Shown one piece after another: positions 2,172 to 31,668 of a DNA stretch of 64,000 bases. This DNA comes from Candidatus Sumerlaeia bacterium. Its GTDB lineage: Bacteria; Sumerlaeota; Sumerlaeia; JADFCW01. The stretch's first letter is position 1. Every line of letters starts with the position of its first letter. The stretch lies in the NCBI GenBank assembly GCA_026415575.1, contig JAOAGV010000001.1, positions 49,399 to 113,398 on the forward strand, read 5' to 3'. The notes below the pieces were generated by a model, which was given only the letters and a program-made list of their open reading frames with translations, did not search any database and was not told where the DNA came from. A program made the translations under genes and the position numbers.

Positions 2172-3266
2172 CTAGCCGATGAAGTCGCGCGGGTCGGGTG
2201 GTTTGCGGGTTACGCGCGGTTGGTGGTCGGCGTCGGCGGGACGCTCAACCCCCGTACCTTCGCGCAAGATAATCTCTTCGAGTGTCATCTTCTTGGGGCG
2301 CGGGACAAAACCGGGTGCCATCGCATATTGCAAAAGCCGCTGCCGGAGCATTTGTAGATCAAAAGGCTTGGAAAAGAAATCATTGGCGCCCAAGCGCTTG
2401 CAATACTCGATGTCGCGCGGCGAACACTTGGCCGAAATAAATAGGATGGGCGTATTCCGGTAACTTTGATTCTGCCGCAAGGATGCACACAACTGGTAGC
2501 CGCTCATCTTGGGCAACATTGCATCGAGAATAATGAAGTCCGGCTGATAATTAATGATTCGCTCCACCGCGCTCAGACCGTCGGGCGCCGTCGTCACCTC
2601 GAAATCTTCGCGAAGAACCAGCGACAGCATGCTGCGCAAGTCCTCATCGTCCTCGACGATCATGACGCGCGGGCGCGTGGGGGCAACCGCACGCGGCGGC
2701 GGTGGAGGCGGGGACGGCGGCTCCGGCGTGGTGGCGGGCGCGGACGGCTGCGGTCCCGTTACCGGCCGGGAAACCGCCGGGCGGGGCGGCGCTGCCGGTT
2801 CGGCTTTGGGTGGCGCAACAGGAGAAATATCCCCGTGCGCCGCCCAGAATTTGGACAGCTGCTCGATGGTATAGCGTTTCGGCCGCACTCGCGCGCAGGC
2901 CCGCTCAAGTGCATACGCGATCGTTTTGACCAAACGATCCGGATCAAACGGCTTGGTCAGATATAGTGTCGCGCCCGCCTCGTACCCTTTCATAATTTCT
3001 TCTTTGGCCCGCTTGGCCGAAAGAAACAACACAGGGACAGCGTGCAATTGGGGATGCTTTCGGATGGCCTTGCAGGTCTGGAAACCATCCATCAGAGGCA
3101 TGATCACATCGAGGACAATGAAATCCGGCTCCGCCAGTTCGATCTTGTCGAGCGCATCCAACCCGTCATAGGCTTCGACCACTTCATAGGTAGGGCTGAG
3201 CGTGAGGCGCAAAAGCGTCCGGACGTCTTCTTCGTCATCCACTACCATGATGCGAAATTTGTTCAT
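2172..3266 (-). CDS. response regulator with two tandem receiver (REC) domains joined by a Pro/Ala-rich linker
   Basis: Two CheY-like modules (MVVDDEEDV...DFIVLDVIMPLMDG...LSAK and VMIVEDDEDL...DFIILDAMLPKMSG...ISAK). The start is moved to MNKFRIMVV (ATG at 3266), which has GGAGG 8 nt upstream. There is no output domain. Confidence 0.85.
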   Translation of the reverse strand: MNKFRIMVVDDEEDVRTLLRLTLSPTYEVVEAYDGLDALDKIELAEPDFIVLDVIMPLMDGFQTCKAIRKHPQLHAVPVLFLSAKRAKEEIMKGYEAGATLYLTKPFDPDRLVKTIAYALERACARVRPKRYTIEQLSKFWAAHGDISPVAPPKAEPAAPPRPAVSRPVTGPQPSAPATTPEPPSPPPPPPRAVAPTRPRVMIVEDDEDLRSMLSLVLREDFEVTTAPDGLSAVERIINYQPDFIILDAMLPKMSGYQLCASLRQNQSYRNTPILFISAKCSPRDIEYCKRLGANDFFSKPFDLQMLRQRLLQYAMAPGFVPRPKKMTLEEIILREGTGVERPADADHQPRVTRKPPDPRDFIG

Positions 3267-3537
3267 CGCCGTTGCCTCCTCTGTTGCAAAACATATCTGG
3301 CCTTTTGCACCGGATTTGTTTTGAAAACGCCGCCTTGCCTTGCAGAGCCAACTGATTTCCTGCCACAAGAAACCTTCGCCGTCCATAATTTTTCGCGTGC
3401 ATAAAAAGACCGGGAGATTTCAAAAAGAACCTCGCGCAAGGAGGCGGGTGCATCTCCCGAAATTGAGAGACACTTCCCGCGAGCGCAAGCAAGACCGCCG
3501 CGGGATGCCGGAATAATCCCCCTCGCACAGCGCCAAG

Positions 3538-3684: not shown

Positions 3685-3849
3685 TACGCCGGAGCGGCAA
3701 CGGCGAATGTGCCCAAACCGCGTGTCAACGCATTACACCAACCTCAATAATCCTTGCCCCGATCTTCGACAAAGTACAGAAATAAACAGTGCATAAACAT
3801 TCGGCTGTCGCAATGGCAGCGCACATTCTTTCGCAGGGAGGAATTGACC

Positions 3850-4959
3850 ATGCCCGCAAATCCCACGGAACCGGTCAAAATCGGTATCATCGGTTCGCAG
3901 TTCGTCGCCGAAATTCATGCGGCGTCGTTCAAGGCCATTCCCGATGCGGCCGAACTTGTGGCTGTCGCCTCGCCCAGTGCAGGCCATGCCGAATCGCTGG
4001 CCGCCCGCTACGGCATTCCGCGTGTGTTTCGCGACTACCGCGACATGTTGTGCGAGGCCGACATCGAGATGGTGACCATCGCGGCGCCCAACCGGCTTCA
4101 CGCAGAAATGGCAATTGCCGCCGCCGAAGCCGGCAAGCATGTTGTTTGCGAGAAGCCCCTTTGCATGACACTTGAAGAAGCCGACCGCATGATCGAAACT
4201 TGCCGCGCCCGCGGCGTTCTTCTGCTCTATGCCGAGGAACTTTTCTTCACACCCAAATATGTCAAAGCCAAGGAGATGGCCGATCAGGGCGCTTTCGGAA
4301 AAATCTATCTGGTCAAGCAGAGCGAAAAACATTTCGGGCCGCACTCGCCGTGGTTCTGGGACGTCGAACAATCGGGCGGCGGCGTGTTTTTCGACATGGG
4401 CTGCCACGGCGTCGCGTTTGCCTGGTGGTTTCTGAACCGGCCGGCCATCCGCAGTGTGTTCTGCCAGATGGGAACCTATGTGCACGGCGACAAAACGCGC
4501 GGCGAGGATAATTCCATCTGCATTATCGAATTTGACGGCGGGGCGGTGGGGCTCATCGAGGACAGCTGGGCGCGCCGCGGCGGCATGGATGACTGCATCG
4601 AGGTCTATGGTGAAGGCGGTGTAACCTACGCCGACTTGATGATGGGCAATGCGCTGCCGACCTACAGCGAATACGGCTACGGCTATGCGGTCGAGAAAGC
4701 ACCGACCACACGCGGCTGGTCGTGGCCGGTCTTCGACGAACTCTGGAACTATGGTTTCCCGCAGGAGATGCGCCACTTTTGCCGCTGTGCGCACGGGATC
4801 GAAAAACCGTTGGTCACCGGCGAAGACGGCCGCGTGGTAATGGAAGCGTTGCTGGCCGGCTATCAATCGGCCGGCACGGGGCAAAAAGTGGCCCTGCCAT
4901 TCCGCCCGACAGGCGTGGCCAAACCGATTGACTTGTGGCGAAGTCCCGTGCGGGTTTGA
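3850..4959 (+). CDS. Gfo/Idh/MocA family NAD(P)-dependent oxidoreductase
   Basis: N-terminal Rossmann motif KIGIIGSQFVAEIHA, then EKPLCMTLEEADRM. The start is moved to MPANPTEP (ATG at 3850), which has AGGGAGG upstream. Confidence 0.85.
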   Translation: MPANPTEPVKIGIIGSQFVAEIHAASFKAIPDAAELVAVASPSAGHAESLAARYGIPRVFRDYRDMLCEADIEMVTIAAPNRLHAEMAIAAAEAGKHVVCEKPLCMTLEEADRMIETCRARGVLLLYAEELFFTPKYVKAKEMADQGAFGKIYLVKQSEKHFGPHSPWFWDVEQSGGGVFFDMGCHGVAFAWWFLNRPAIRSVFCQMGTYVHGDKTRGEDNSICIIEFDGGAVGLIEDSWARRGGMDDCIEVYGEGGVTYADLMMGNALPTYSEYGYGYAVEKAPTTRGWSWPVFDELWNYGFPQEMRHFCRCAHGIEKPLVTGEDGRVVMEALLAGYQSAGTGQKVALPFRPTGVAKPIDLWRSPVRV

Positions 4960-4999
4960 GGTTTGTTGCACGGGAAACTAGCCGTTCCTATACCATGCA

Positions 5000-5269
5000 A
5001 ACACATCCACAGATTGCGCGGATTGCGCAAGTTGCGGGGCAGGCGCTTTTTAACAGGACTGTGTTAGGGGGAGATTTGGGAATAAAAACTGGAAGCATAA
5101 AGCCCATTAAGGCGAAATATCCATAAACTTAACTGCACCCCTTTAGCTGAATTCTAACATAACGCACAACAAAACCGAATGTGACATTCATCGGGATTAT
5201 ACAAAGACTTCACGCCAGATTTATTTATTCTTAGCTCACAATCTTTATAGGAAAGAAAGGGAAAGGGCT
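5000..5269 (+). promoter_or_regulatory. AT-rich (about 38% GC) leader/promoter region upstream of the tandem secretin genes
   Basis: A sharp GC drop relative to the flanks over a 270-bp non-coding stretch, ending at the RBS GAAAGGGAAAGGG before the ATG at 5270. Confidence 0.35.
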
Positions 5270-6937
5270 ATGAGGTTTGCCATGGTCTCTGCACTCTTTG
5301 TCGCTTTGCTTGCGCCCGCAGCGGCGGGTGAACCCAATCCTAGTGTTGAAAAACCGACTGCTCCTGACGAAATCCCCTCCAACGTTGTCAAAGTTCTGCG
5401 CACGACCAACAAGGCGCAGATCAACCGGTATGTCCCGAAGGTTTATGCATTCAAGAATGTAAATCCCTTCAGTGTGGTTCGCTTTTATCGGCGAGTGATA
5501 GAACTCGAAGAGGGACGGTTTGCAACATTTGTCGCTCCGGATGGGAAGAGCGGGTTGGTCTTGGTGGTTGTGCCGGAATACCAGATCGAATCGCTGGACA
5601 AGCTCATGACGTCGCTGGACCGGCCGGACCTGACCACATCGGGCGACGATTATTACAAATACATCCAGTTGCGCCACCGCGCCGCCGACGACGTGGGGTT
5701 TCTGGGGGCTGTCTGGAGCCAAGGAACGCGCAGCAGCAGCCGTCCGCCGGGCGGCTCGCGGGTCTCGGACGTTGAGTTTTATTGCGATCTGGAAACCAAC
5801 GCCATCTTTGTGCAAGGCCCGCAAAGCATTGCCGACTCGGTGGAATCCGCCGCCCGGGCGCTTGATCTGCCGGTGCCGCAAGTTCTGATCGAGGCGACGC
5901 TCTATGAGCTGGACTTGAACAACGACAATGCCATCGGCTTCGATTACTATGCGTGGAAAAACGGTCCGGGCCGCAATCTGTTTGCCGTTGGCGCTTATGC
6001 CGAATACGAAAAAGTCAACGAGCTGCAGGGGGGAGTGCCGCTTTACAACAGCGGTGTGAACAGCTTCGGACTTCCTGAAAGCCGCTTTCGCAGCCGCGGG
6101 GCCAACGCCGCCTACTTTCTCGATATTCCTTCGGCGTATCTAGACTTTTTAGTGACCAAGGGCGTGGGCCGGATCATTACAACAGGCCGCATTCTGAGCA
6201 AGATTCCGACGACATATAAGTCGGGCTTGAACGCCTTCGGACAGGCGACGTTTGATCCCGAAACGGACCGCCCCGCGCTCGCCGCCGCTCCCGCCGAGTT
6301 TCGCGCCAATGACGAGGTGCTTTACTACAAGGTCGAGACCGGTCCGACGCCCCGCGCCGGCGCGCGCGCACCGGCAAGTGTCCTCGACCCCTACGGCGAC
6401 GACCCAACCTATCCCGACAACCGCACGGTGGTCGGCAAGGCAGTGCCGCTGCGGGCCGGCGGCACGACGGTGAACCAGCGCACGCTGGCCGCCGTGGAGG
6501 TCGGAACGTTGCTGCAAGTGACCCCCCGCATTGCCGAGGAAGACATGTCGCTCCGGCTGCGAATGGAGGTCTCCAGCCTTCTGGGATTTGACGGCACGGG
6601 CAATCCACGCATCAGTGCCCGTCGCGTGGAAACTGACGTGCGCGTTCGCGACGGCGAAGAGGTCGTTTTCGGCGGCATCGAGCGGACATCGCGGATGCAG
6701 TCCACGCGCAAGATGCCGCTTCTGGGTTCGCTGCCCGGGATCGGCTGGGCGTTCGGACACGAAATGGGCGGCAGCAAAAAATGCGTAGTGGTGGCCGTGA
6801 TCCGGGCCGTCCGGCAGTCGGGCGGTCTAACGGCGGAGGCTGCCGAAGTCGCCCGCCAAGTCGGCGATGAGGCGCCCGCGCCTCTGCCACCCAACCGGTT
6901 CGGTTTTGATCAGTGGTGGATTGACAATACGCGGTAA
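5270..6937 (+). CDS. secretin-family outer-membrane channel protein (GspD/PilQ-like), paralog 1
   Basis: A signal peptide, then a secretin-N-like region (VVKVLRTTNKAQINRYV...). The secretin domain begins QVLIEATLYELDLNNDNAIGFDYYAWKNGPG. The C-terminal motif is KMPLLGSLPGIGWAFGHE. Confidence 0.75.
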   Translation: MRFAMVSALFVALLAPAAAGEPNPSVEKPTAPDEIPSNVVKVLRTTNKAQINRYVPKVYAFKNVNPFSVVRFYRRVIELEEGRFATFVAPDGKSGLVLVVVPEYQIESLDKLMTSLDRPDLTTSGDDYYKYIQLRHRAADDVGFLGAVWSQGTRSSSRPPGGSRVSDVEFYCDLETNAIFVQGPQSIADSVESAARALDLPVPQVLIEATLYELDLNNDNAIGFDYYAWKNGPGRNLFAVGAYAEYEKVNELQGGVPLYNSGVNSFGLPESRFRSRGANAAYFLDIPSAYLDFLVTKGVGRIITTGRILSKIPTTYKSGLNAFGQATFDPETDRPALAAAPAEFRANDEVLYYKVETGPTPRAGARAPASVLDPYGDDPTYPDNRTVVGKAVPLRAGGTTVNQRTLAAVEVGTLLQVTPRIAEEDMSLRLRMEVSSLLGFDGTGNPRISARRVETDVRVRDGEEVVFGGIERTSRMQSTRKMPLLGSLPGIGWAFGHEMGGSKKCVVVAVIRAVRQSGGLTAEAAEVARQVGDEAPAPLPPNRFGFDQWWIDNTR

Positions 6938-6965
6938 CGCACAGGCGGAGAAAGGAAAAGGAACA

Positions 6966-8762
6966 ATGCGCGGCGAAAAGAACAAATCATTCTGTTCGGC
7001 AGGTTGGACATACGGGAGGCGACTCTGGAAACCTGCATGGACGGTCGTTGCTGCTCTGCTGGTCGCCCTGAGCGTGGTTCACTACGGTGCCGTTATTATG
7101 TTTGCGGCACAATTCGATGAGAGCACCGGCGTCAATACGCGTCGCGGCGATCCCAGCCCCACGGCGGCCGAGAGCAACCTGGACGACTATACCTTTCAGG
7201 ACGAGCAGATCAATCTGGCCCCCGACAGCGGCGTGGTTAAAGTCCTGCGCGTCAACCAGAAGAATCTGATCAACGACTACGTGACGGAGATGATTCCGTG
7301 TCGCAACGTCAGCGTGCGGGAGATTCGCCATCTGATGCGGCAGGTTTGCGGGGCCGAAGGCGGGCGCGCCGAAGTCGTTCGCGACAAAAACCAAAAGGAA
7401 TACTTCATTCAGGTGATCTGCCCAAGGTTCCAACTGCCCTACCTGCGCGAAGCGATTGCGGCGCTCGACCAACCGTGGGTTCGCTACATGGACGACGGTG
7501 CGTCGGTCACCTACTACACGGCCAGATTTCGCGACATCCGCGCCGTGGACCGCCTCGCCACAATCTGGGCCGGCGACGGCGAAAGCCAAATTGACCTCGC
7601 CCGCAATGCTGTCCTTCGCTGGGACGAACCCTATCGCGTGAAGGAATACCGAACCCAAGGCGTGGTCATGGTGGATATCCCCGTCAATCAGGTGTTGCTC
7701 GATTTAAAAATCTACGAGATCAATGTAACCAACGACATCAAGTTGGGTTTGGACTACATTGCGTGGAAAAACGGCCCGGGACGCAATCTTGCAGAGTTGA
7801 TCGCCGCCGGCATGGAAAACCGCGAGCACTTCGCCAACGCATCGAGCATCTACAATCCGGTCTATCCGCGCGTGGTCAATCCCGGCCCCCGCGATTTGCA
7901 TCTGACGCGCGAGTTTGCCACCGGGCAATACCACGCTTTTGCCAACTATCTGATGACCTCGGCGTATCTGGATTTTCTGGTCTCCAAAGGCCGCGCAAAA
8001 ACGCTGGCTGCCACGCAGCTTCTGGCCACCAGCGGGCAGGGGCGCAACGCCGGCACCTCACCCGCACGGTTTGAGGCCGTGGACGACATCGCCGGCTTTG
8101 AAATCCACCCCAACGACGCGGGTGTCGAGACGGGAACCGGCGCGCGCCCGACGCGTCTGGCTACCACAATGGGACAGCTGATCGTGGACGGGGCCACGTC
8201 GCGCGCCATTCGCGACGACGACGGCAATCCGACGTTCACGTATTCCCCAAATCCGATCACCGTGGATACGCCCGTCCACAGCCGGACGCTGCAGTATGGA
8301 CTGCGCGGCAAAACTGGCCTTTTTTTTGAAGTGATTCCCCACGTGGCACTCGATGCCTGCGAGTTGGAGATCGTCGCCGGTGCATCGAGTCTCGCGGGCA
8401 CCGGCCCCGACGGGCTGCCGATTCTGGCGCAGCGGACAATCTCGGCGCAGATCAGCGTGCCCAATGGCCAGCCGATTGTGCTCAGCGGTCTGTCGCGCGT
8501 CACACGAGTCCACAACAACGCACGCATGCCGATTCTGGGGAAGATTCCGATTTTGGGCTATGTCTTCGGCGGCGAGATGGGCGTGCAGCGGGAAACACAG
8601 GTTGTTTTTATCCTCACGCCGACGATTATTGCGGCCTCGGATTCCGCCGTGACCTTGGGACATCAGGCGCGCGAGGCCATCGCGCGCGTCAAGGGCGAAA
8701 TCAAGACGATGCCGCCGCGCCATCCGCTGGGATTCGACCAGTGGCTGCTGGGGGAAGAGTAG
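6966..8762 (+). CDS. secretin-family outer-membrane channel protein, paralog 2
   Basis: The same architecture: VVKVLRVNQKNLINDYV; QVLLDLKIYEINVTNDIKLGLDYIAWKNGPG; ARMPILGKIPILGYVFGGEMGVQRETQVVFILTPTII. The shared C-terminal tail (GFDQWLL versus GFDQWWI) shows a tandem duplication. Start at the MRGEKNK ATG at 6966. Confidence 0.75.
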   Translation: MRGEKNKSFCSAGWTYGRRLWKPAWTVVAALLVALSVVHYGAVIMFAAQFDESTGVNTRRGDPSPTAAESNLDDYTFQDEQINLAPDSGVVKVLRVNQKNLINDYVTEMIPCRNVSVREIRHLMRQVCGAEGGRAEVVRDKNQKEYFIQVICPRFQLPYLREAIAALDQPWVRYMDDGASVTYYTARFRDIRAVDRLATIWAGDGESQIDLARNAVLRWDEPYRVKEYRTQGVVMVDIPVNQVLLDLKIYEINVTNDIKLGLDYIAWKNGPGRNLAELIAAGMENREHFANASSIYNPVYPRVVNPGPRDLHLTREFATGQYHAFANYLMTSAYLDFLVSKGRAKTLAATQLLATSGQGRNAGTSPARFEAVDDIAGFEIHPNDAGVETGTGARPTRLATTMGQLIVDGATSRAIRDDDGNPTFTYSPNPITVDTPVHSRTLQYGLRGKTGLFFEVIPHVALDACELEIVAGASSLAGTGPDGLPILAQRTISAQISVPNGQPIVLSGLSRVTRVHNNARMPILGKIPILGYVFGGEMGVQRETQVVFILTPTIIAASDSAVTLGHQAREAIARVKGEIKTMPPRHPLGFDQWLLGEE

Positions 8763-8838
8763 GATTTTGGATTTCGATTTGCGATTTTGGATTGACGGCC
8801 ACGCCGTATCACCTTTTTTCCGCTTTGGGTGAAAATGG

Positions 8839-9444
8839 CTATGGGGCGATTCGGACGCGGCGGCCCTCGATGCGGACCTTGCCTTGGGCGATGAGCGTGA
8901 TTGCGCGGGGGAGCAGTTTGTGCTCCTCCTTGAGAATTCGCGCCGACAGCGTCTCAACCGTGTCGTCTTCTTCGACCGGCACGGCCGCCTGCAGGATGAT
9001 CGGACCGTGGTCCACCTGATCATCCACGAAATGGACGGTGCAGCCGCTGATCTTGACGCCGTATTCGAGCGCCTGCCGCTGGCCTTCCAGTCCGGGGAAC
9101 GACGGCAGAAGCGCCGGATGGATGTTGATGATGCGGTTGGGGAAGGCTTCGAGCAGCGGCGCTTTGACGATGCGCATATAGCCGGCGAGGACAATGAGAT
9201 CAATGCCGCGCGGCTTGAGAAAATCGGCGATGGCTTGGTTGTGCGCCTTGTTGGTCGGAAAGTCCTCGCGGCGAAACACGGCTGTCTCGATGCCGTGGGC
9301 GCGGGCGAACTCAAGCGCTTTGGCCTGCGGGTTGTCGCTCACAAGCACATTGACGACGGCGGGCACTTCGCCCGCTTCAATTTTTTCGACGATCGAGGCG
9401 AAGTTGCTGCCCCGACCCGATGCCATAACGGCAAGGGTAAGCAT
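8839..9444 (-). CDS. purN: phosphoribosylglycinamide formyltransferase
   Basis: The sequence LTLAVMASGRGSNFASIV...IDLIVLAGYMRIV...NIHPALLPSFPG is the classic PurN. Confidence 0.9.
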   Translation of the reverse strand: MLTLAVMASGRGSNFASIVEKIEAGEVPAVVNVLVSDNPQAKALEFARAHGIETAVFRREDFPTNKAHNQAIADFLKPRGIDLIVLAGYMRIVKAPLLEAFPNRIINIHPALLPSFPGLEGQRQALEYGVKISGCTVHFVDDQVDHGPIILQAAVPVEEDDTVETLSARILKEEHKLLPRAITLIAQGKVRIEGRRVRIAP

Positions 9445-12595: not shown

Positions 12596-13570
12596 TCACT
12601 TCTTTGCCGCGACGGCCTTGTCCTTGTCTTTTTTGGGCTCCAGCGCCTTGGCAATCTTCTCGATAATGCCGCGAACGACCTCGGCTTGGTCGCTTTCCAG
12701 CCCCAGAATCAGCAGACGGTCTTTCTGAAACACCAGAGTCTTTTTGCCATTCTTGGCCGTAAATGTATGCCACGGCGACTCGTTGGCTATCGAGGCCATG
12801 TCCTTTTTGACGGATTCTGTGAACTGCGCAAGCGCCTTGGCGCTGTCTTCGGGCGCAACATACCGGGCGACCAGAATGCCTTGCTCGCCGCCGGACAAAT
12901 CATAGCCGGCATAGACTGCTTCGGCTTTAGCCGGTTTGTTGGCATTGGCTTCGAGCAACAAAATGTTGTCGGTGCCCATGAACCAGATCTGATCGAGCGG
13001 ATGGCGGTCGTGGATGTAGAGAATACCGTTGGCGCGGAGTTTCTCCTTGGGCAGCGCGCGCACCAGTTCAGGCAGTGGATGTTGGCCCGGAATCTCTTGG
13101 GCGATGGTCTTGGCCACGGCAATCAGGTTTTCTTTCGCGGCGCCCTCTTCACCGACATCTTTCACTTCGATGCAATAAGAGCCGCGCCAGAGAACGACCA
13201 TGCCGGGCGAGTAGGAAGCCTCGTCGGGGATGGCAATGATCTCGCCATCGCGCTGGCGCAAGGCCGAATACAAGCCGTAGGCGTTGTCGGAATTGCTGAG
13301 GCGATAGACGGCGACCTCGAACTCCTGTTTGCCCTTGGTCAGTTTCATGTGCTCGGAATCCACATAGGCAAAGCCCATGTGAATGTCGGCGAAACCGTCA
13401 ATGAGGTCGTAGAGTTTTTCGCCGACGACTTTCTGGATGTCGCCCTGACGCACCCAGTCGGTGATTTGGACTTTGGCAAGCGAGAACGGAACCGGGTCGG
13501 CGGCGCGGCTGGGGGCGCCGGCTGCAAGTAAGCCCATAGCCAGACTGGCGGTTGCAATCCATCGTTTCAT
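12596..13570 (-). CDS. secreted hypothetical protein, paralog of 46327..47235
   Basis: Signal peptide MKRWIATASLAMGLLAAGAPSRA. It shares ordered motifs with the 46327 lipoprotein (LYDLIDGFA/LFEAIDGMA; GILVARYVAPE...AKALAQF/DVLVARYKVGE...QKALEAF). Confidence 0.6.
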   Translation of the reverse strand: MKRWIATASLAMGLLAAGAPSRAADPVPFSLAKVQITDWVRQGDIQKVVGEKLYDLIDGFADIHMGFAYVDSEHMKLTKGKQEFEVAVYRLSNSDNAYGLYSALRQRDGEIIAIPDEASYSPGMVVLWRGSYCIEVKDVGEEGAAKENLIAVAKTIAQEIPGQHPLPELVRALPKEKLRANGILYIHDRHPLDQIWFMGTDNILLLEANANKPAKAEAVYAGYDLSGGEQGILVARYVAPEDSAKALAQFTESVKKDMASIANESPWHTFTAKNGKKTLVFQKDRLLILGLESDQAEVVRGIIEKIAKALEPKKDKDKAVAAKK

Positions 13571-16419: not shown

Positions 16420-17790
16420 TCACGGCTGCCTCATCCAGTCGGGGCCGACCTCCGAGGCGGCAAGCGGTTTTTCGCGGAGTGCCGCGCCGACGGGACCTGC
16501 GCCCTCGCGGCCGCGCCATAGGCCGTCGCCGCCACGTTGGGCAAAGGCCGCCTCCGAACGGATTCCTGCCTCGCCCACAAGGCCGGGCTCGAGGCCCTGC
16601 ACCACGTTGCCTTCCCATGTCATGCGGAGCGGCACAGACTTCAGAAGGATCGCCGTTCCTTTGTTGCCGATGACCAAGTTGTTGCGCAGGATGCAATCTT
16701 CGGGCGGGAGACTGTTGCGGCTGCTGTCGGCCGAGCCGATTTCGATCGGACTGCGGCAGTTGACAAAAGTGTTGAATTCGATGACGGCGCGCTTGACCTG
16801 AAAATAGCCGTTCAGCGGGGAGTTGCGCACGCCGTTCATGATGGAAAGGGCCGAGCGGGTCCCGTCGCCGCGCAAATCGGCGAAGTAGTTGTGCGCCACG
16901 CGATGCTCTTCGCCGATGACGCGCACGCCGCCGGTTTCCTTGATGTTGTGGCCGAAGAAAAAGTTGCCCTCGACCACGCAGCGGTTTCCATGCCGCAGCG
17001 TCAGTGTGCCCTGACACCGCTCGAACGTATTGCAGCGGTATATGTTCTCGCAGGACTTGTTCGAGATGGTTTCGATCTCGCCGTTGCACTCCTCGAAATA
17101 GTTGAATTCAACGGTGGTGCGGGAGTTTTGCATCGAGGAGTCGCTGTCGCCGATGCGGATGATTTCCGCGCCGTTCTTTGGGAATTCCGGCCGGCGGCCG
17201 AAATAGTTGTGGTCAATCCGGTTATAGTTGGGCTGGTCGGAAAGCCAGACGGCCAGGACCGGGCCGCGGGTGGTTTTGCCGGAGAACCAGCAATGATCCA
17301 CGCGATTGTGTTCGCCGTAGATTTGTACCCATTTGTTTTCCTGCGCGGGGTCGGCGGGATTGTAGTCCAAAATGGCGCATTGCGTGACGCGGCAATGGCG
17401 GGCCGGATAGTCGGAGCGTGTGCGAAACTCGATGGCGTCGGTGCGGTTGCCGCCGTCGCGAAACACAAGGCCTTCAACGACGAGGTGGCTGCCGCCGATG
17501 TGGAGCCGTGACTGGCCGCAAAGGATGGTTTTCCCCGGCGTTTCGGCGCGCAACGTGATCGGCTGCGATGCGGTGCCGGTGGCGCGAAAGGCGAGGTCGG
17601 CGTCGCGCCAGAGGCCGTTGGCGAGGATGATGCTGTCGCCCGGGGCGGCTTTTTTAACCGCCTCATTGAATTGCGAAATATCGGCCGCGCGATAGTCGGC
17701 GGCGCCTGCGGGCTGGCCGATTGAAAGGCACACCCATGCGATTGCCGACACCCAGCCTTTGGTTCCGGCTTTCACTTTTGCTGGGTTCAT
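16420..17790 (-). CDS. polysaccharide lyase family 6-like (chondroitinase B / alginate lyase type) right-handed beta-helix protein, secreted
   Basis: Signal peptide. Repetitive beta-helix motifs (IDHNYF, NYFEECNGEIETISNKSCENIYRCNTF, VEGNFFFGH, IEFNTF), as in PL6. Confidence 0.7.
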   Translation of the reverse strand: MNPAKVKAGTKGWVSAIAWVCLSIGQPAGAADYRAADISQFNEAVKKAAPGDSIILANGLWRDADLAFRATGTASQPITLRAETPGKTILCGQSRLHIGGSHLVVEGLVFRDGGNRTDAIEFRTRSDYPARHCRVTQCAILDYNPADPAQENKWVQIYGEHNRVDHCWFSGKTTRGPVLAVWLSDQPNYNRIDHNYFGRRPEFPKNGAEIIRIGDSDSSMQNSRTTVEFNYFEECNGEIETISNKSCENIYRCNTFERCQGTLTLRHGNRCVVEGNFFFGHNIKETGGVRVIGEEHRVAHNYFADLRGDGTRSALSIMNGVRNSPLNGYFQVKRAVIEFNTFVNCRSPIEIGSADSSRNSLPPEDCILRNNLVIGNKGTAILLKSVPLRMTWEGNVVQGLEPGLVGEAGIRSEAAFAQRGGDGLWRGREGAGPVGAALREKPLAASEVGPDWMRQP

Positions 17791-21329: not shown

Positions 21330-22706
21330 TTATTGTTCATCTTCATCTGAGCGTTTTTTCTTTTTTGCTTTCCTCGACTTATCGGCGACCCACTCTTTGC
21401 TGCCGCGAATGGGTTGGCCCATTTGGGCGAGCCATGCGGCAAATGTTTGCTTTAGTTCTGCCATTTTGTCGGGATGGGTTTTCGATAAATCCTTCGACTC
21501 CTGCGGATCGTCCTTGAGGTTGAAGAGTTCCTCGCGGCCTTCCTGAAAGACATATTTCCAGTCGTCCTTGCGAATGGCCCAGCGTCCGACACCGTCATGC
21601 CAGCACAGATAGTCGTGAATTTTGCCGACTTCGCCGCGCGCGGCGGGCAGCAGATTTTTGCCGTCGAACATCCCCGTCGGCGCAGGCAGCTCGCAGGCGG
21701 CCAGCGCTGTCGGCAGAATATCGAAGGACATCACCGGCGTGTTACAGGTTGATCCGGCGGGCAGACGGCCCGGCCAGACCATGCAGAAGGGTGTGCGGAT
21801 GCCACCTTCCCACATGGAGGCTTTGAATCCGCGCAGGGGCGAGTTGTCGGCCCTCATTCCCGCCGCTCCGCCGTTGTCGGTCAGGAAGAACAGAAGCGTG
21901 TTGTCCCATGTGCCTGTTTCTTTCAGCGCGGCCACAATCCGGCCCACGCTAAGGTCAAGGTGCTTAAGCATGGCCATGAGGATGTTTCGCGTGGGATCGC
22001 CGGTGTTGTACTGTTTGACATCCTCTTCCGGGGCCTGCGCGGGCGAATGCACCGAGTTGAAGCAGACATAGGCGAAGAACGGCCGGTCGCGGTGCCGTCG
22101 GATGAACGAAATAGCCTCGTCGGCGATGCGGTGGGGAAGATAGCCCTCGTCGTCAATGGGATCGAGGCCGCGCCGCAGCAGATTGTGCTCGGCCGTTCCC
22201 TCGCGCTTGAGATTAAAATAGTCGTGGGCGCCATGGCCGAGAAAGCCGTAGAACTCGTCGAAACCGCGCCGGACCGGATTGTATTCGGGCGTGATGCCCA
22301 GATGCCACTTGCCGAAGCAGCCGCAGGCATAGCCGTGCTCTTTCAGATACTGGGGGAAAATTTTTTCGGTCAGAGGCAGGCCCTCGCGCGACGAGGAGGT
22401 CGTATAGAATCCCGACCGCTGCTGATAGCGGCCGGTCATGATGCCGGCGCGCGTAGGCGAACAGGTTGCGCCCGATGTGTAGGCCTGGCCAAACGTCACG
22501 CCCGCTTTCATCAAGGCGTCAAGGTTGGGCGTGGCCACTTCTTTTTGGTGCAGCGGATTATGCGATACATCCGCATAGCCCTGATCGTCGGAAAGAAGAA
22601 TGACAATGTTTGGCCTGCGCGCCGTTTGACCGGTGCTGCGCAAGGTCGCAATGGCCGCCGCGGCGCCAAATAGACGGCCCAAAGCCTGCCGTCGTGTCAA
22701 ATGCAT
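21330..22706 (-). CDS. arylsulfatase (S1 formylglycine-dependent sulfatase), TAT-exported
   Basis: MHLTRRQALGRLFGAAAAIA is a TAT signal. SDDQGYAD...CSPTRAGIMTGRY is the C-x-P-x-R FGly motif, then GKWHLG. Start moved to the ATG at 22706 (AGGAGG RBS). Confidence 0.9.
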   Translation of the reverse strand: MHLTRRQALGRLFGAAAAIATLRSTGQTARRPNIVILLSDDQGYADVSHNPLHQKEVATPNLDALMKAGVTFGQAYTSGATCSPTRAGIMTGRYQQRSGFYTTSSSREGLPLTEKIFPQYLKEHGYACGCFGKWHLGITPEYNPVRRGFDEFYGFLGHGAHDYFNLKREGTAEHNLLRRGLDPIDDEGYLPHRIADEAISFIRRHRDRPFFAYVCFNSVHSPAQAPEEDVKQYNTGDPTRNILMAMLKHLDLSVGRIVAALKETGTWDNTLLFFLTDNGGAAGMRADNSPLRGFKASMWEGGIRTPFCMVWPGRLPAGSTCNTPVMSFDILPTALAACELPAPTGMFDGKNLLPAARGEVGKIHDYLCWHDGVGRWAIRKDDWKYVFQEGREELFNLKDDPQESKDLSKTHPDKMAELKQTFAAWLAQMGQPIRGSKEWVADKSRKAKKKKRSDEDEQ

Positions 22707-22944
22707 GGCTGCCTCCTGTAGGATGAAATGAAAAAAACGTCGTGCCGCAACCCGCCGCTGATAGAGGTAGTGCGTGTCGGCGGGCTTTGGCAATGAAATT
22801 TCCTTGCGGCTGCGCTGCGTTTCCGGTAACGCAGCCTGTCGGCTGGAGAAAGCGGGGCAGATTTCAGTCGGCGTCATCGCCGCCAAAGAGGCAAAAACCT
22901 GTCGCAGGTCGTTTCCCGCCGTGCGACACGAAGGATGGAACAGC

Positions 22945-24369
22945 ATGGCCGAGTTGATGCTTTCCGATCAAGGCGCGCCGCGCGAGCGAATGACCGGCTA
23001 TCACTGGTGGGTGCTGGCCGTGGGTTCGATGAGCTGGCTGTTCGACTGCATGGACGCGCGGTTGTTTGCGCTGTCGCGCCAGCCGGCGTTGACGCAGTTG
23101 CTGGCGCCCGTGACCGCCGGCATGGCGCCGGCCGACGCGGGATTGACCGTGTTGAAATTCGGCGATGTGGCCACGGCGGCCATGATGGTCGGCTGGGCCG
23201 TGGGCGGACTGTTTTTCGGCATCGTCGGCGACAAGTGGGGCCGCGTGCGCACGCTCTCGACCAGCATCCTCGTCTATTCGTCGTTCACGGGGCTTTCCGG
23301 CTTGTCGCAAACGTGGGTGGATTTCTGTGTGTGGCGGTTCCTGATGGGCTGCGGCATAGGCGGAGCGTTTGCAACGGCCGCCACGCTGATTGCCGAAACA
23401 TTGCCGGCCCATGTGCGGGCGCTGGCGCTGGGATCGTTTCAGGCGTTGTCGGCTTTGGGCAACATTCTGGGGTCGGCCGTGAGTGCATGGGTGATTCCGC
23501 CGAACCAGCCGGTGAACTTTCTGGGCCTCGGCTGGCATGTTCCCGGCTGGCGGTTGATTTTTGGCTTCGGCGTTCTGCCCGCGTTTCTGATCTTTCTGAT
23601 CATGCGCACCATCCGCGAGCCGGAGCAGTGGCATCAGGCGCGCCGGACGGCCAAGGCGCAGCTGGACCGCCAGATGGGCGACCTTAAAAGCATGATGACG
23701 CATCCGCGCTGGCGGCGGGCGGCGATTGTCGGCGTGCTTCTGGCGGTCGCCGGAGCCGTGGGGCTGTGGGGCGTGGGCTTTTATACGCCGGAGCTGATCT
23801 CGGAGGCGCTCAAAGGCGCGACGCCGAAACAGGAGAACTTTGTTCGCGGCTTCGGATTGATGATTCAGGACTGCGGCGCGCTGGTGGGGATTTTCTTCTA
23901 CACGTTTCTGGCGTTGTGGATGGGCCGGCGGGCGGCGTTTGGAATCTGTTTTGTGCTGGCCTATGCCGTAGTCACGTTTGTTTTTCTGAATCTAAACTCG
24001 GCGCGCGACGCCTTTTGGATGACGCCGATGGTGGGCTTCGTCACGCTGAGTGTGTTCGGCGGCTACTCGATCTATTTTCCCGAGATTTTTCCGACGCGGC
24101 TGCGGGCAACCGGCACGGCGATTTGCTACAATGTAGCGCGGATTCTGACAGCGGCGATCATTTTCATGCAGGTGCCGATGAAGGGCTTCTTCAACAATCT
24201 GTTCGCCGACCAAAGCCATCCGGTGACGAAGTTTTTCGTTTCGATCGGCGCACCGACACCTTTCCGCGCCGTCGCAGTGGTGATGTGTCTGATTTATTTT
24301 GTAGGCCTGATTACGTTGTTCTGGGCGCCCGAAACCAAAGGCAAGCCGCTGCCGACCGATGAAAACTGA
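22945..24369 (+). CDS. MFS transporter
   Basis: Twelve predicted TM helices and MFS motifs (GDKWGRVRTL, LMGCGIGGAF). Start at the MAELML ATG at 22945. Confidence 0.8.
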   Translation: MAELMLSDQGAPRERMTGYHWWVLAVGSMSWLFDCMDARLFALSRQPALTQLLAPVTAGMAPADAGLTVLKFGDVATAAMMVGWAVGGLFFGIVGDKWGRVRTLSTSILVYSSFTGLSGLSQTWVDFCVWRFLMGCGIGGAFATAATLIAETLPAHVRALALGSFQALSALGNILGSAVSAWVIPPNQPVNFLGLGWHVPGWRLIFGFGVLPAFLIFLIMRTIREPEQWHQARRTAKAQLDRQMGDLKSMMTHPRWRRAAIVGVLLAVAGAVGLWGVGFYTPELISEALKGATPKQENFVRGFGLMIQDCGALVGIFFYTFLALWMGRRAAFGICFVLAYAVVTFVFLNLNSARDAFWMTPMVGFVTLSVFGGYSIYFPEIFPTRLRATGTAICYNVARILTAAIIFMQVPMKGFFNNLFADQSHPVTKFFVSIGAPTPFRAVAVVMCLIYFVGLITLFWAPETKGKPLPTDEN

Positions 24370-25825: not shown

Positions 25826-27202
25826 CTAACTTTCACACTCTTTCGAGTGCTCTCGCCACAGGCCTTTTCGTTTTTCGCGCGCCTCGGCTTCGTATTGCTC
25901 GAAACGCTTGCGGTGGCGGTAGGGGTGCGAGCGGTCGGCGCGGGCATAGCCGTCGCGGATCATGCGCGCGTTAAGAAACTTTTTGTTGCTCAGGTGGACG
26001 TAGGCGGGACCAGAAGCGCCGTCGGCGAGCGGCCCGTGGTCGTTGCTGAGTTCAAGCCCGCTGCTGCGAACCATGCGCTCAAGATGTTCGATTGCCAGTT
26101 CCTGCGCGCGAGATTTGCTTTCGACAGAAGGCCACGGGGCGACGCCGAGCAGCGTGATGGTGCGTCCATCGCGCAGCAACAGTTCGGCAGGACTCAGGAC
26201 GGTTTTCAGTTGAGCCTTTTTCTTCGGGAATTGCTGTTTCACCGTGACGCGTGTCCCATACGAGTTTTCCCGCGGATCCACAGCGCGGCGAATTTGCACA
26301 CTACCGCTTGCGGCTGCGGGGCCTGCGCTCCAGCGCCGGATACGTTCCTCGAAATCTTCGGGCGAGGCGGACCGCTCGATGAACTCAAGGTTCGGCAGCC
26401 CGATCGCGTTGAACAATTCGCCGCCCTCGCGCATCCGATTCTCGATGGTTGCGCGGAATTCCGGGTTGATCTCGTAGCCCACAGAATTGCGGCCGAGTCG
26501 GTGCGCCGCCAGCGAGGTCGTCCCGCTGCCGAGAAAGGGATCGAGCACGGTTTCACCGGCAAAGGTGAACATGCGAATGAGCCGGCGCGGCAGTTCGAGC
26601 GGAAAGGCGGCCGGATGCTCTCCCTGACGGACGCCGCTGAAATTCCAGTGGCCGTAAAAATACTCGTTCCACTCCTCAGTCGTCAGGCGCGCGGCTTCTT
26701 TGGCGGCAAGCGAGGGCGGAGGGGGCGCCTTGCCGGGTTTTTTGAAAATCACGATGAACTCATAGTCAATCTTGATGATGCCATTGCGCGGAAACGGAAA
26801 GGAACCCATGATTGCCGCGCCGCCCGACGTATTGCATGTGGTAACCTTTTGCCAGATGATTGCGCCCATATAGTCGAGACCGAGTTTTTTTTCGCAAAAG
26901 CCGACAATTTCCTCGCGGATGGGAATTACTTTGTAGCGTCCATAGTGGGCGGCGCGGGCGAACTGGTCGCCGATGTTGACGCACAGCCGGCAGCCGTCGT
27001 GGAGCACGCGCGCACATTCTTCCCACACCAGATTCAGATTGTTGATGTAGGCGCGATAGTCATCGTGAAAGCCGATCTGGTCCGCCGCGCCGTAATCTTT
27101 GATCTGCCAATAGGGCGGCGAAGTGACGACCAGATGAACGCTCCGGTCGGGCAGTTCCGGCATCGCGCGGGAATCGGCAAAGATGATTTTGTGCGTGGAC
27201 AT
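25826..27202 (-). CDS. DNA methyltransferase (beta-class, SPPY motif: probable N4-cytosine MTase) fused to a C-terminal SNase-like (thermonuclease-fold) domain
   Basis: Motif IV TSPPYW precedes motif I DPFLGSGTT, which is the beta permutation. The C-terminal 150 aa (TVLSPAELLLRDGRTITLLGVAPWPS...GPAYVHLSNKKFLNARMIRDGYA...EAEAREKRKGLWR) aligns to staphylococcal nuclease topology. The canonical VDTPE metal site reads VAPWP. Confidence 0.8.
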   Translation of the reverse strand: MSTHKIIFADSRAMPELPDRSVHLVVTSPPYWQIKDYGAADQIGFHDDYRAYINNLNLVWEECARVLHDGCRLCVNIGDQFARAAHYGRYKVIPIREEIVGFCEKKLGLDYMGAIIWQKVTTCNTSGGAAIMGSFPFPRNGIIKIDYEFIVIFKKPGKAPPPPSLAAKEAARLTTEEWNEYFYGHWNFSGVRQGEHPAAFPLELPRRLIRMFTFAGETVLDPFLGSGTTSLAAHRLGRNSVGYEINPEFRATIENRMREGGELFNAIGLPNLEFIERSASPEDFEERIRRWSAGPAAASGSVQIRRAVDPRENSYGTRVTVKQQFPKKKAQLKTVLSPAELLLRDGRTITLLGVAPWPSVESKSRAQELAIEHLERMVRSSGLELSNDHGPLADGASGPAYVHLSNKKFLNARMIRDGYARADRSHPYRHRKRFEQYEAEAREKRKGLWREHSKECES

Positions 27203-28427: not shown

Positions 28428-28640
28428 CTAAGAAACGTAAGGCGTGCAAAAAGATAGGTGGAAAACGGCCGCAAAACACGGGACCTGTCCGTCTGCTCGG
28501 CTCTTTTTTTCTCTTGAACGCTTTTCTGTCCCTGCGCCAGCATAGCGGCCTCGAACGCGGGATTCGGCCGGGGGGCGGATTTCCCGTTCTAAGGCCCGAT
28601 GGAACAAAGGGCCATCGTGTCCAGAAAGGAGGTGATCCGA

Positions 28641-29240
28641 ATGCGAAAAGGTTTTACCCTGATTGAGCTGTTGATCGTGGTGGCCATCATCGCTATCCTT
28701 GCGGCGATTGCCATTCCGAACTTTCTCGAAGCGCAAACGCGGTCGAAGGTCTCCAGAGCCATGGCGGATATGCGCACACTGGCCACAGCGCTCGAATGCT
28801 ACGCCGTGGACCAGAACGGCGATTATCCATTCGACCTCGACAGCCGCGGATGGCCGTGGTATATCACCGATGTCCTATCTACGCCAATTACTTATGTAAC
28901 CAATGCGGCCTCGCTTCACGATCCGTTTCGGATGCATTTGAATCAGAACGATGCCAGCTGGCGCTTTCGGTATGTGAACTATCGCGCCAACTACGGCAGC
29001 AAACCGTGGCCGCCGTGCTGGTGTCCGGGGCCTTATTACACGCGATGGGTTGCCAGCACGCCCGACAGCACGGTTGACCAAGGTATCGAACAATGGGGAT
29101 TGTGGAAGCTCAGTTCGGCTGGACCCGACCGGACGGCCAATTCGAGTTTTTTCGTGGGCGATTTGGTCTATGATCCGACCAACGGAACAATTTCCGGCGG
29201 CGATGTCATCCGCTCGCAAAAGACCGGTCAGCGGAAGTAA
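28641..29240 (+). CDS. prepilin-type N-terminal cleavage/methylation domain protein (pseudopilin-like)
   Basis: MRKGFTLIELLIVVAIIAILAAIAIPNF is the class III signal peptide and methylation motif. RBS AAAGGAGGTG. Confidence 0.8.
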   Translation: MRKGFTLIELLIVVAIIAILAAIAIPNFLEAQTRSKVSRAMADMRTLATALECYAVDQNGDYPFDLDSRGWPWYITDVLSTPITYVTNAASLHDPFRMHLNQNDASWRFRYVNYRANYGSKPWPPCWCPGPYYTRWVASTPDSTVDQGIEQWGLWKLSSAGPDRTANSSFFVGDLVYDPTNGTISGGDVIRSQKTGQRK

Positions 29241-29392
29241 CGCTTCGGCTGGCTCATTTTGTCGCGTTCCCGCTTCTGCGCGAAGGCGCAAAAAGTAAAA
29301 ACAAAGAGGTTGAATTCGGCGCCCTCCTGCGGAAGGTGGGAACAGATGTGGAATAGGCATTTTGTTTGGGCTATTACAAAAAGGGGGCAATC

Positions 29393-30688
29393 ATGAAACG
29401 CAGGAAAGAGTTGAACTTGAGCCGGCGCGCATTTACCAAATCCGCCGCACTGGCCGCAGGCACAGCCATGGTCGGCACACCGCTGCGCGCCGCCACGTCC
29501 AAACCCAAAACGCTGAAGATCGGCTGGATTGGTGCGGGCGACCGCGGGGCTGCCGATATTCGGTTCTGCCTCGATGCCGATGACAACATCGAGGTCGTCG
29601 CCATCGCCGATCTTTTTCCCGATCAAGTCAAGGTGGCGCTCGACAAGGTTGGCAAAAAGTTTCAAGACCGGATCAAAGTAACCAAGGATACAACCTTCTT
29701 CGGCTTCGACGCCTACAAAAAAGTTCTCGAAATGCCCGAAGTGGATATTGTGTTCCTGACCACACCGCCGTTTTTCCGGCCGGTGCAATTCCGCGCCGCC
29801 ATTGAGGCGGGCAAGCATTGCTTCGTGGAAAAACCGGGCGCCGTGGACCCTGTGGGCGTTCGTTCCATTCTCGAAACCACCGAGATGGCGCGCAAGAAGA
29901 ACCTCAGCGTCGTTGTCGGCATGCAACAGCGCTGGATGCCGCAATATCAGGAAATCGTCAAGCGGGTCCAAGACGGCGAGATCGGCGAAATTCGCCATGT
30001 CGGTGCCTATTGGATCGGGACAATGATGACGTGGCACTGGCAGCCGCGCGAGTCGGTCAAGAGCGACCTCGAATGGCAGATCCGCTGCTGGCCGCAGCTG
30101 ACATGGCTGTCGGGCGATTGCTGCGTCGAGCAATTGGTGCACAACCTCGATGTCTCGAACTGGGTTTTGGGCACAACGCCGCTGCAGGTAGTGGCCGTCG
30201 GGGGACGCCTCGCGCGCGTCGGCGACCAGTATGGCACCGTCTATGACCACTTCGCCTTCGACTTCGACTACCCGGGCGGGCTGAAGGGTCTGGGCATTAA
30301 TGCCCAAATTGAAAAAGTTACCAACAAGGTCTGTAACACGATTACCGGCAGCAAAGGCGAAGCCTCGGTCTCGCGCGGACACGGCTTCCTCATCGGCCCG
30401 AAAGGACGCTATGAATACAAGGGCTCCATGGACGGCGACGGCCCGATGCATCAAGCGATGTGCGAGGGCATTCGCAAGGGCGAACCGGTGAATCAGGGAC
30501 AGATTCTGTGCGAGGCCACGTTGACCGGCATCATCGGCCGCATGAGTGCATATTCGGGAAAACCGGTCGGCTGGGAATGGGCGCTGAAACAATCGAAACT
30601 GGATTTGACGCCCAAACAGGAGCTTTCGTTCGACAAACCGTTCCCCATGCCGCCGGTTCAGATGCCCAGCAATACGGAATTGATTTAA
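29393..30688 (+). CDS. Gfo/Idh/MocA family oxidoreductase, TAT-exported
   Basis: The TAT signal is SRRAFTKSAALAAGTAMVG. The Rossmann motif is KIGWIGAGDRG, followed by CFVEKPGAVD. Confidence 0.85.
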   Translation: MKRRKELNLSRRAFTKSAALAAGTAMVGTPLRAATSKPKTLKIGWIGAGDRGAADIRFCLDADDNIEVVAIADLFPDQVKVALDKVGKKFQDRIKVTKDTTFFGFDAYKKVLEMPEVDIVFLTTPPFFRPVQFRAAIEAGKHCFVEKPGAVDPVGVRSILETTEMARKKNLSVVVGMQQRWMPQYQEIVKRVQDGEIGEIRHVGAYWIGTMMTWHWQPRESVKSDLEWQIRCWPQLTWLSGDCCVEQLVHNLDVSNWVLGTTPLQVVAVGGRLARVGDQYGTVYDHFAFDFDYPGGLKGLGINAQIEKVTNKVCNTITGSKGEASVSRGHGFLIGPKGRYEYKGSMDGDGPMHQAMCEGIRKGEPVNQGQILCEATLTGIIGRMSAYSGKPVGWEWALKQSKLDLTPKQELSFDKPFPMPPVQMPSNTELI

Positions 30689-30714
30689 CCGCGGCGGCGA
30701 TGCGGACGGAACGA

Positions 30715-30862: not shown

Positions 30863-30940
30863 TTTCACGATGTTCGATACAAGGGTTTGCCTTCAAGGGC
30901 ATCAGCCGCGTGAAAGCCTGCCTGCATAGGGCGCACGGCG

Positions 30941-31545: not shown

Positions 31546-31668
31546 TGGGCGATGGGTCCTTTCCGCAGTATTTAGTTCGCAAATCATGGGCAGTGTCAGC
31601 GCAATCCGGCTGCGGGGGCAAGCAAAAAAGCCATCCGATTTGTCTTACCCGCCCGACCCGTCCGACGT

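Follow-up and report, generated by a model that had tools for sequence, protein, structure and literature searches.

A pair of adjacent secretin genes was analysed in a 64-kb stretch of DNA from a Candidatus Sumerlaeia bacterium (contig JAOAGV010000001.1, positions 49,399 to 113,398; the whole stretch is called the window here), and the two genes were found to represent a distinct kind of secretin module. The upstream gene is named sec1, secA or paralog 1 and is a member of the A group, and the downstream gene is named sec2, secB or paralog 2 and is a member of the B group. We hold with high confidence that this module is ancient, obligately paired and devoid of the N0 domain, that it is almost never coupled genomically to a type IV filament (T4F) or type III secretion system (T3SS) machine (1 of 70 loci), and that it is found recurrently in Pho-regulon and other importer operons. 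The pair in the window consists of the following features, in which ORF stands for open reading frame and AF2 for AlphaFold2:

5270..6937, + strand: secA (paralog 1), 555 aa, defined by ORF call, Pfam, NCBIfam, AF2 and A-group orthologues
6938..6965, + strand: intergenic spacer of 28 nt that contains the Shine-Dalgarno-like GGAGAAAGGAAAAGG; a scan of the + strand showed nothing resembling a terminator
6966..8762, + strand: secB (paralog 2), 598 aa, defined by Pfam, NCBIfam, AF2, Foldseek, B-group orthologues and invariant columns

Two orthologous groups encoded side by side

The NCBI model of sec1 starts at 5282 and gives 551 aa. The longest ORF of sec2 spans 6867..8762 (+), and its true start is likely to be the ATG at 6966, which is preceded by GGAGAAAGGAAAAGG and gives a 598-aa protein identical to the NCBI model P0120. 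Because the spacer between the genes is without a terminator, co-transcription of sec1 and sec2 is likely. Both the proteins scored above the gathering score of PF00263 Secretin in Pfam (82 bits for sec1 and 70 bits for sec2 against 27.5), which places them in the secretin family, and the Secretin_N match of sec1 was sub-threshold (25.3 against 28.2 bits), this domain being recorded for many of the orthologues. A preliminary description made from the sequence alone had reported tandem secretin genes of 555 and about 600 aa, and this agrees with the present results; the motifs quoted there, GFDQWW versus GFDQWLL and KKCVVVAVIRAV versus ETQVVFILTPTII, are all present.

The relatives of the pair were collected from a scan of species-representative genomes, a metagenome scan and context look-ups, which gave 70 non-redundant loci including the window. 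The search with sec1 returned 102 relatives at E < 1e-58, followed by a gap down to canonical GspD at E ~1e-11, and the search with sec2 returned 120 relatives among the matches listed, all at E 1e-100 or better. Each of the 102 matches of the sec1 search scored nearly twofold higher against sec1 than against sec2, and the reverse was observed for the 120 matches of the sec2 search. When sec1 was compared with 1.84 billion cluster representatives by phmmer, only 110 proteins reached E <= 1e-30, out of 13,664 secretins that reached E <= 1e-3, and thus the sec1 family is small and distinct. The A and B proteins formed two clades in a neighbour-joining tree, each monophyletic and with congruent topology, and the distance matrices of A and B correlated with r = 0.90, the highest value among the permutations being 0.15. 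This correlation was also found to hold across the two or three paralogous pairs present in single metagenome-assembled genomes (MAGs). The identity was 31–99% within the A or the B group and 26–34% between the A and B proteins of one locus.

In 64 of the 70 loci, A is followed by B in the same orientation, the remaining six being mostly cut by contig ends, and no locus with intact flanks holds just one of the two genes. The junctions between A and B in the called genes of the relatives ranged from -4 to about +60 nt. Since some MAGs carry two or three pairs that come from different subclades, the pair must duplicate or move as a unit. The MAGs harboring these loci are labelled Sumerlaeota/BRC1, and some are labelled 'Planctomycetota', 'Brocadiia' or 'Phycisphaeraceae'. 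Furthermore, distant tandem secretin pairs with 22–26% identity, in which both genes have PF00263 and no N0, were found in Victivallales, Lentisphaerae and one Verrucomicrobia-labelled MAG.

Because the pair is always co-inherited, a channel made of two different subunits is a reasonable reading. That A and B do not co-assemble, and are two homo-oligomeric secretins with different jobs that are merely adjacent, is considered unlikely. Such an arrangement would be in keeping with the complete secretin domain and own signal sequence of each protein, and with the solved secretin pores, which consist of one secretin species with non-secretin accessory subunits. It sits poorly with the one-to-one adjacency, the fixed order, the short or overlapping junctions, the duplication as a unit and the mirror-tree correlation described above, and also with the absence of any intact-flank locus having just one gene.

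The preliminary description had further proposed that the pair arose by duplication and that paralog 1 has a drifted S-domain. The paralogy is supported by the alignment of sec1 with sec2 (BLASTP, 29% identity over ~550 residues, E 5e-50), but the duplication is not a local event, as it is ancient and all the relatives sort into two groups. The drifted S-domain could not be upheld: the stretch KKCVVVAVIRAV forms the final beta-strand predicted for the secretin domain (498–516, AF2), and its departure from the canonical motif was found by consensus and alignment to be a trait of the whole A group. This divergent strand is the only feature that would favour a recent tandem duplication with a decaying paralog 1, and we give that explanation almost no weight, as A and B are both conserved family-wide at the identities given above, the strand is an A-group trait, and both ORFs are intact with high GC content at third codon positions (GC3). 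A decaying or pseudogenising duplicate is thus contradicted by the group-wide conservation.

Protein architecture and comparison with known secretins

The AF2 monomer models of sec1 and sec2 (pLDDT of 72 and 74, respectively) showed the same plan. A signal sequence and a disordered linker lead into two beta-alpha-beta-beta-alpha ring-building domains, after which come a full secretin domain and a short helical GFDQW tail. In sec1, a Sec signal peptide and a linker of ~30 aa are followed by ring domains at 54–116 and 128–198, the secretin domain at 204–516 and a C-terminus with a short helix and the GFDQWW tail. The N-terminus of sec2 is long and hydrophobic (signal peptide or anchor, helix 25–44), and is followed by ring domains at 105–167 and 180–236, the secretin domain at 242–555, and then helices and the GFDQWLL tail. 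The N0 families PF21305/PF07660 were absent from sec1, sec2 and all 222 listed family members, whereas the canonical GspD matches from the same searches do carry PF21305; neither AF2 model has a folded domain ahead of the first ring domain. An acidic motif, GDPSP..SN.DDYT.QDEQIN, at about residues 62–84 of sec2 (in the window interval 6966–7270) is conserved across the B group. It sits in an otherwise disordered stretch before the first ring domain, and the A group has no counterpart of it.

The gate-1 region, taken from the 'VGQDVPV' position to the next barrel strand, was found to be 40–75 aa long against ~20 aa in canonical GspD, the comparison set being E. coli GspD and three other canonical GspD proteins. 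It contains a DNRT-type motif, the Arg of which (R385 in sec1 and R440 in sec2) is near-invariant in A and invariant in B. Judged from these sequences, the gate-1 region is rebuilt.

The bit scores of sec1 and sec2 were far below the NCBIfam cutoffs of all the secretin classes compared: 108 and 73 against 351 for GspD (TIGR02517), 71 and 57 against 284 for PilQ (TIGR02515), 36 and 35 against 554 for HofQ, and 59 and 58 against 238 for the T3SS secretin SctC (TIGR02516). Pfam detected only PF00263 and PF03958 in the two proteins, and no AMIN, N0 or Tad/Flp pilus-formation domain. In Foldseek searches with the AF2 models, InvG, GspD, PilQ and pIV were matched at E 1e-11 to 3e-19, and RcpA (8odn) was the weakest secretin fold match (E 4e-9 for sec1 and 3e-8 for sec2); the identities with these five were 10–18%, and no secretin class was preferred for A or B. 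Grouping with the Tad/Flp secretins RcpA/CpaC found no support, as there are no tad genes within the window. The name 'CpaC' on some of the sec2 relatives is a source-annotation name only. A prophage pIV was also considered and was rejected, as the flanks are chromosomal housekeeping genes and the module is vertically conserved phylum-wide. Thus, we found that the module belongs to the secretin superfamily, yet falls outside GspD, PilQ/HofQ, SctC, RcpA and pIV.

GspD/PulD (TIGR02517; 5wq7, 5wq8, 6hcg) gave the best sequence and fold matches of the secretin domain (phmmer E 5e-20 to V. cholerae GspD; Foldseek E ~1e-18 to GspD), and they have the Secretin_N-type ring domains and the conserved P-x-LG-x-IP-x-LG loop in common with the pair. 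Unlike GspD, the pair is without N0 and N2, its gate-1 region is two to three times longer, a GFDQW tail stands instead of the S-domain, and two distinct subunits are always encoded together; it adjoins importers and almost never has gspC-O neighbours (1 of 70 loci). PilQ and HofQ ('DNA uptake porin') share the secretin domain with the pair, are the only secretins with known inward movement of material and are often encoded apart from ATPase genes, but the pair is without their AMIN and N0 domains and without pilMNOP neighbours in the window. Another likeness is with DR_0774 of Deinococcus radiodurans, in which the secretin is a standing envelope component of a hetero-oligomeric complex with non-canonical accessory proteins (PMC10828601). 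In that complex, a beta-rich protein replaces the pilotin, and ion transport and nutrient uptake are listed as its possible function (PMC10828601). It differs from the present pair in having one secretin species with non-secretin partners, a long periplasmic stack with extra domains and no importer synteny.

Importer operons and the leader of the pair

In 21 of the 70 loci, an inner-membrane importer is encoded beside the pair and in the same orientation, with gaps of 20–300 nt:

17 loci, same strand: pstSCAB-phoU beside the pair, often with phoB-phoR
2 loci, same strand: urtABCDE beside the pair
1 locus, same strand: NMT1-type ABC importer beside the pair
1 locus, a Victivallaceae MAG, same strand: feoB beside the pair

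UrtA scored 576 bits with TIGR03407 against a cutoff of 493 (NCBIfam), and one MAG has three pairs (L010, L030 and L041), each beside a different importer. The common order of the Pst loci is phoB-phoR-(lipoprotein)-A-B-pstS-pstC-pstA-pstB-phoU, which occurs in several subclades and in Victivallis L063, where a Metallophos phosphoesterase gene lies between phoR and secA; the Lentisphaerae fragment L059 has A-B-pstS. The relatives in the clade of the window are 63–70% identical to it. Two of them (L073 and L075) have phoB-phoR-pstSCAB-phoU followed by A and then B after a gap of 100–300 nt, two others (L076 and L069) have pstSCAB-phoU followed by A and then B, and in L068 phoU is directly upstream of the pair at the contig edge. 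These five are among the eight closest relatives of the window. The Pst linkage is lost in the window, L007 and L001. The placement of the relatives in importer operons speaks against a simple role in piliation or secretion.

A family-less lipoprotein of 250–300 aa is encoded directly upstream of secA in 43 of the 70 loci (for example, L003 9139–9897; L071 5407–6267; L070 4797–5612), and its presence does not depend on which importer adjoins the pair. The protein carries a lipobox Cys, its N-terminal half is beta-sandwich-like, and an NPY.G motif is conserved at its C-terminus. Neither Pfam nor NCBIfam assigned it to a family, and its profile gave only a weak arrestin-C-like beta-sandwich match against the PDB. 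It was absent from the window and L001 by tblastn, and was undetected at all the closest relatives of the window. This lipoprotein may serve the channel as a pilotin, belt or plug.

The leader of the pair in the window and the flanking genes are as follows:

3754–4959, + strand: GFO/IDH/MocA oxidoreductase, 5' flank of the pair (Pfam)
4960..5269, + strand: leader, a probable promoter region; GC content of 0.43 overall
5154..5187, + strand: two-box element; CTAACA at 5154–5159, 21 nt, GTGACA(T) at 5181–5187
5252..5269, + strand: ribosome-binding region; purine-rich GAAAGAAAGGGAAAGGGCT before the ATG at 5270, which corresponds in the alignment to GAAAGGAGG ahead of secA in five relatives of the clade
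8839–9444, - strand: purN (Formyl_trans_N), convergent 3' flank, followed by purM (Pfam)

These flanks, an oxidoreductase and an opposite-strand purN, and the AT-richness of the leader had been noted correctly at the outset; the GC content was found to be 0.42 at 5000–5269 and 0.375 in the last 200 nt (5070–5269), against 0.59 in the whole window. The leader showed no Rfam family, sigma-70 consensus promoter, terminator or meaningful ORF, and its 5' untranslated region gave no stable RNA fold (z = 0.24). Between the stop of sec2 and purN (8763–8838), there are 76 nt with repeated GATTT(T)GG / CGATTT units and a T-run, and a simple scan found no hairpin terminator in this interval.

The CTAACA box of the two-box element is followed by degenerate repeats at +11 (CACAA) and +22 (CGAAT). 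A relaxed pattern including GTGACA occurred once each in the window, L068, L069, L073, L075 and L076, always in the secA leader, and a CTAAC box 21 nt upstream of GTGACA was present in the window and in four of those five relatives. The motif was not enriched elsewhere in the window and is thus a single-site element and not a dispersed repeat. As judged from this comparison of leaders, the pair has its own conserved control element. The window site taken alone is not statistically distinctive by a simple score of three CTAAC units, which is our own estimate.

The first box of the window element is a half-site of the CTAAY-N6-CTAAY repeats that precede pstS in the related loci. The strict repeat with an 11-bp period was found 16 times in 2.36 Mb on both strands, against ~3 expected by chance from our own estimate. 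Nine of these 16 are directly before pstS and one is before phoB. The other six are all intergenic by gene coordinates; four of them (L003, L017, L059 and L063) are placed ahead of secretin operons and share their strand, one falls in the divergent region of L010, and one is 0.57 kb upstream of the first pstS in L003. The repeats have two or three units and occur almost only before pstS, phoB and secretin operons, at the following positions:

L003: 1068, 4483 and 8640
L017: 7483
L038: 7182
L046: 11676
L059: 83 and 3816
L063: 9696 and 13356
L071: 9773
L075: 3361

A direct repeat with an 11-bp period is the layout of the PhoB/PhoP/SphR boxes. CTAAY-N6-CTAAY is regarded as a candidate Pho box that would be shared by the Sumerlaeota-type and Lentisphaerae/Victivallis lineages. 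For the window we claim no Pho box but a conserved element, the first box of which matches the Pho half-site, and the window copy may be under the control of a Pho regulator.

A possible nutrient-uptake channel and the alternatives

We tentatively propose, with a little less than even confidence, that the pair is a two-subunit outer-membrane channel that would admit phosphate to periplasmic binding proteins, and that its paralogous copies would admit other nutrients. The fuller form of this proposal is held with slightly more reserve: A and B together would be the first known hetero-oligomeric secretin ring and the first machine-free secretin, a 'porin' under Pho control that would pass phosphate into the periplasm for ABC or Feo importers, with copies for urea, other anions or Fe2+. 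In the proposed mechanism, A and B would be the subunits of an obligate two-secretin channel, an old and lineage-restricted module, that functions with no type II, type IV-pilus or type III machine dedicated to it. The periplasmic part of each protein is short, with two ring domains and without the N0 domain used for docking, and the gate-1 region is enlarged and rebuilt. The channel would be expressed from its own regulated promoter, the regulator in the window clade probably being the phosphate-starvation regulator, and phosphate or phosphorus compounds would cross the outer membrane through it to the binding protein of the inner-membrane importer. The paralogous copies elsewhere would serve urea, other anions and Fe2+, and the window pair would have been separated from pstSCAB-phoU by rearrangement while keeping the leader element of the clade. 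The data show the family membership, the layout of the domains, the strict pairing with co-evolution, the lack of machinery, the synteny with importers and the Pho-box-like repeats of the relatives; hetero-oligomer formation, the direction of transport, the substrate and the Pho control of the window copy are all parts that we infer.

A functional parallel may be drawn with OprP/OprO and PhoE, which are outer-membrane channels encoded in the Pho regulon, at or near pst. OprO and OprP are tandem paralogues, and their anion selectivity comes from Arg/Lys residues; the gate-region Arg that is invariant in B and near-invariant in A would be comparable. Their fold is unrelated, being that of 16-stranded beta-barrel trimers, and the suggested resemblance would be functional only. 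The proposal is favoured by the obligate pairing, the lack of a linked T4F or T3SS machine, the importer synteny, which extends to the clade of the window, the CTAAY-N6-CTAAY repeats and the long gate-1 region with its conserved Arg. Secretin pores are also known to admit small molecules to the cell (PMC13392014).

Several observations weigh against the uptake proposal. To our knowledge, every characterised secretin serves a type II secretion system (T2SS), T3SS, type IV pilus (T4P)/competence or phage assembly machine, and none is known to be a stand-alone solute channel. In the literature searched, no report was found of such a channel, of secretins that are paired or hetero-oligomeric, or of pst operons that contain secretins. 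About 70% of the loci are stand-alone operons among housekeeping genes, the window pair adjoins no importer, and its Pho-box-like element has one perfect half-site only. The residue G389 of sec1 aligns with the gate hinge G453 of V. cholerae GspD (phmmer alignment), and by this position the pair may have a conventional gated export pore. Two further points, on the side of filament clusters without a secretin, are the two such clusters examined in Sumerlaeota (L077 and L078), neither of which has a secretin within 10 kb, and the published MAG tables, in which there are 1–8 pilB yet few gspD or pilQ per genome. The two clusters are as follows:

L077, 10001–16102: T2SSE, two T2SSF and four small genes, some with N_methyl; from the same MAG as the pair L002
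L078, 10001–16142: T2SSE, two T2SSF and four small genes, some with N_methyl

These points bear on the main alternative, which we consider less likely, and in which secretin-less T4F clusters encoded elsewhere, either T2SS-like or T4P, would use the pair as their shared or dedicated outlet in the outer membrane. The copies beside pst would then serve the phosphate-starvation-induced secretion of scavenging enzymes or lipoproteins. Hxc of Pseudomonas is a Pho-regulated T2SS, and in Hxc/LapA secretin expression is tied to phosphate starvation, as it may be for the pair. The secretion of ElpS in Caulobacter offers the same parallel (PMC2996285), and in the Hxc/ElpS systems a lipoprotein gene adjoins the secretion genes. 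In those systems the T2SS cluster is complete, with genes for an ATPase, a platform and pseudopilins and for one secretin that bears N0, whereas only the secretins with or without the lipoprotein are found here. Fang et al. reported that all the Sumerlaeota MAGs have type IV pilus genes and that pilB, pilC and pseudopilin genes are numerous in each MAG, and these counts also favour an outlet role. No PilM-P or GspC/L/M was recognisable within 10 kb of the L077 and L078 clusters. A service of the pair to prepilin-like proteins, suggested in the preliminary description, is conceivable since neither cluster has its own secretin. An outlet role would further agree with the service of all known secretins to such machines, with the conserved N-terminal motif of B, which could be a docking peptide replacing N0, and with the upstream lipoprotein conserved in 43 loci, which would fit a pilotin.

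The genes for such a machine were searched in the window and its relatives. No ATPase, platform, alignment-complex or T3SS gene was found in the window by Pfam of all sizeable ORFs and by phmmer with E. coli GspC/D/E/F/G/L/O, no pilM-P genes were found among the window ORFs in the Pfam scans, and a complete T2SS/T4P operon within the window was thereby rejected. One prepilin-like N_methyl protein is encoded in the window at 28599–29240 (+) (E 7e-9), and this gene is a point in favour of the T4F outlet. It adjoins three opposite-strand ORFs, 29228–30868, 30941–31810 and 31669–32616 (-), two of which have no Pfam family and one of which is TIG/IPT. When the E. coli Gsp proteins were searched by phmmer over 1.2 Mb of the window and flanks, no secretin beyond the pairs was detected, and GspE/F-like genes were present within 10 kb in only one of the 70 loci (L033), where they are on the opposite strand and 4–7 kb away. 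The absence of secretion or pilus machinery nearby, claimed in the preliminary description, was thus confirmed in the window and in 69 of the 70 related loci. This scarcity of T4F genes near the pair argues against an outlet role, and so do the absence of N0 and the short periplasmic part with two ring domains only. Furthermore, a role in secretion offers no obvious reason for the operon-like linkage to urtABCDE, an NMT1-type ABC importer and feoB, and the lipoprotein is present regardless of the importer and is thus not a phosphate-specific cargo.

A HofQ/PilQ-like import of large polymers rich in phosphorus (for example, extracellular DNA, polyphosphate or organophosphates) during phosphate starvation was also weighed and is considered improbable. 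The Pho-regulon synteny with the Pho-box-like repeats, the Metallophos phosphoesterase gene of Victivallis L063, the weak NCBIfam similarity to HofQ and the wide secretin lumen in established structures are consistent with it. The HofQ scores of 36 and 35 bits are, on the other hand, far below 554. DNA uptake through PilQ/HofQ requires a competence pilus, and no such pilus is linked to the pair. The urea, NMT1-type and feoB neighbours would be left unexplained.

Some other genes of the window may be recorded here. Glycosaminoglycan-degradation-type genes are scattered at 16420–17790 (-), 21330–22946 (-), 57283–60630 (+) and 60900–63530 (+), the set comprising a chondroitinase B-like protein, a sulfatase, a GH123 with CBM_4_9 and a heparinase II/III-like DUF4962 protein. 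There are several GFO/IDH/MocA oxidoreductases in the window. A response regulator at 2172–3386 (-) has two receiver domains with a long Pro/Ala-rich linker between them and no output domain, and a DNA methylase (N6_N4_Mtase) at 25826–27202 (-) is fused to a C-terminal staphylococcal-nuclease-like domain. Two paralogous DUF6599 proteins are encoded 33 kb apart, at 12596–13570 (-) and 46327–47235 (-), and the second gene adjoins a FUR-family regulator (45818–46237) and a DUF2400 protein.

Secretins are the textbook one-way portals for export and assembly, made of a single protein species and tied to an inner-membrane machine. At the genomic level, the module described here breaks three rules of this family: two different secretins always occur together, there is neither a machine nor an N0 domain, and the genes have an operon-like placement with nutrient importers and Pho-box-like sites. 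If the pair serves as a T4F outlet instead of an uptake route, it would be the first two-subunit secretin and would imply a new, N0-free coupling between secretin and platform. If the uptake route is true, the module would represent a new functional class of secretins, and it would help to explain how nutrients pass across the outer membrane in poorly known diderm phyla such as Sumerlaeota and Lentisphaerae.

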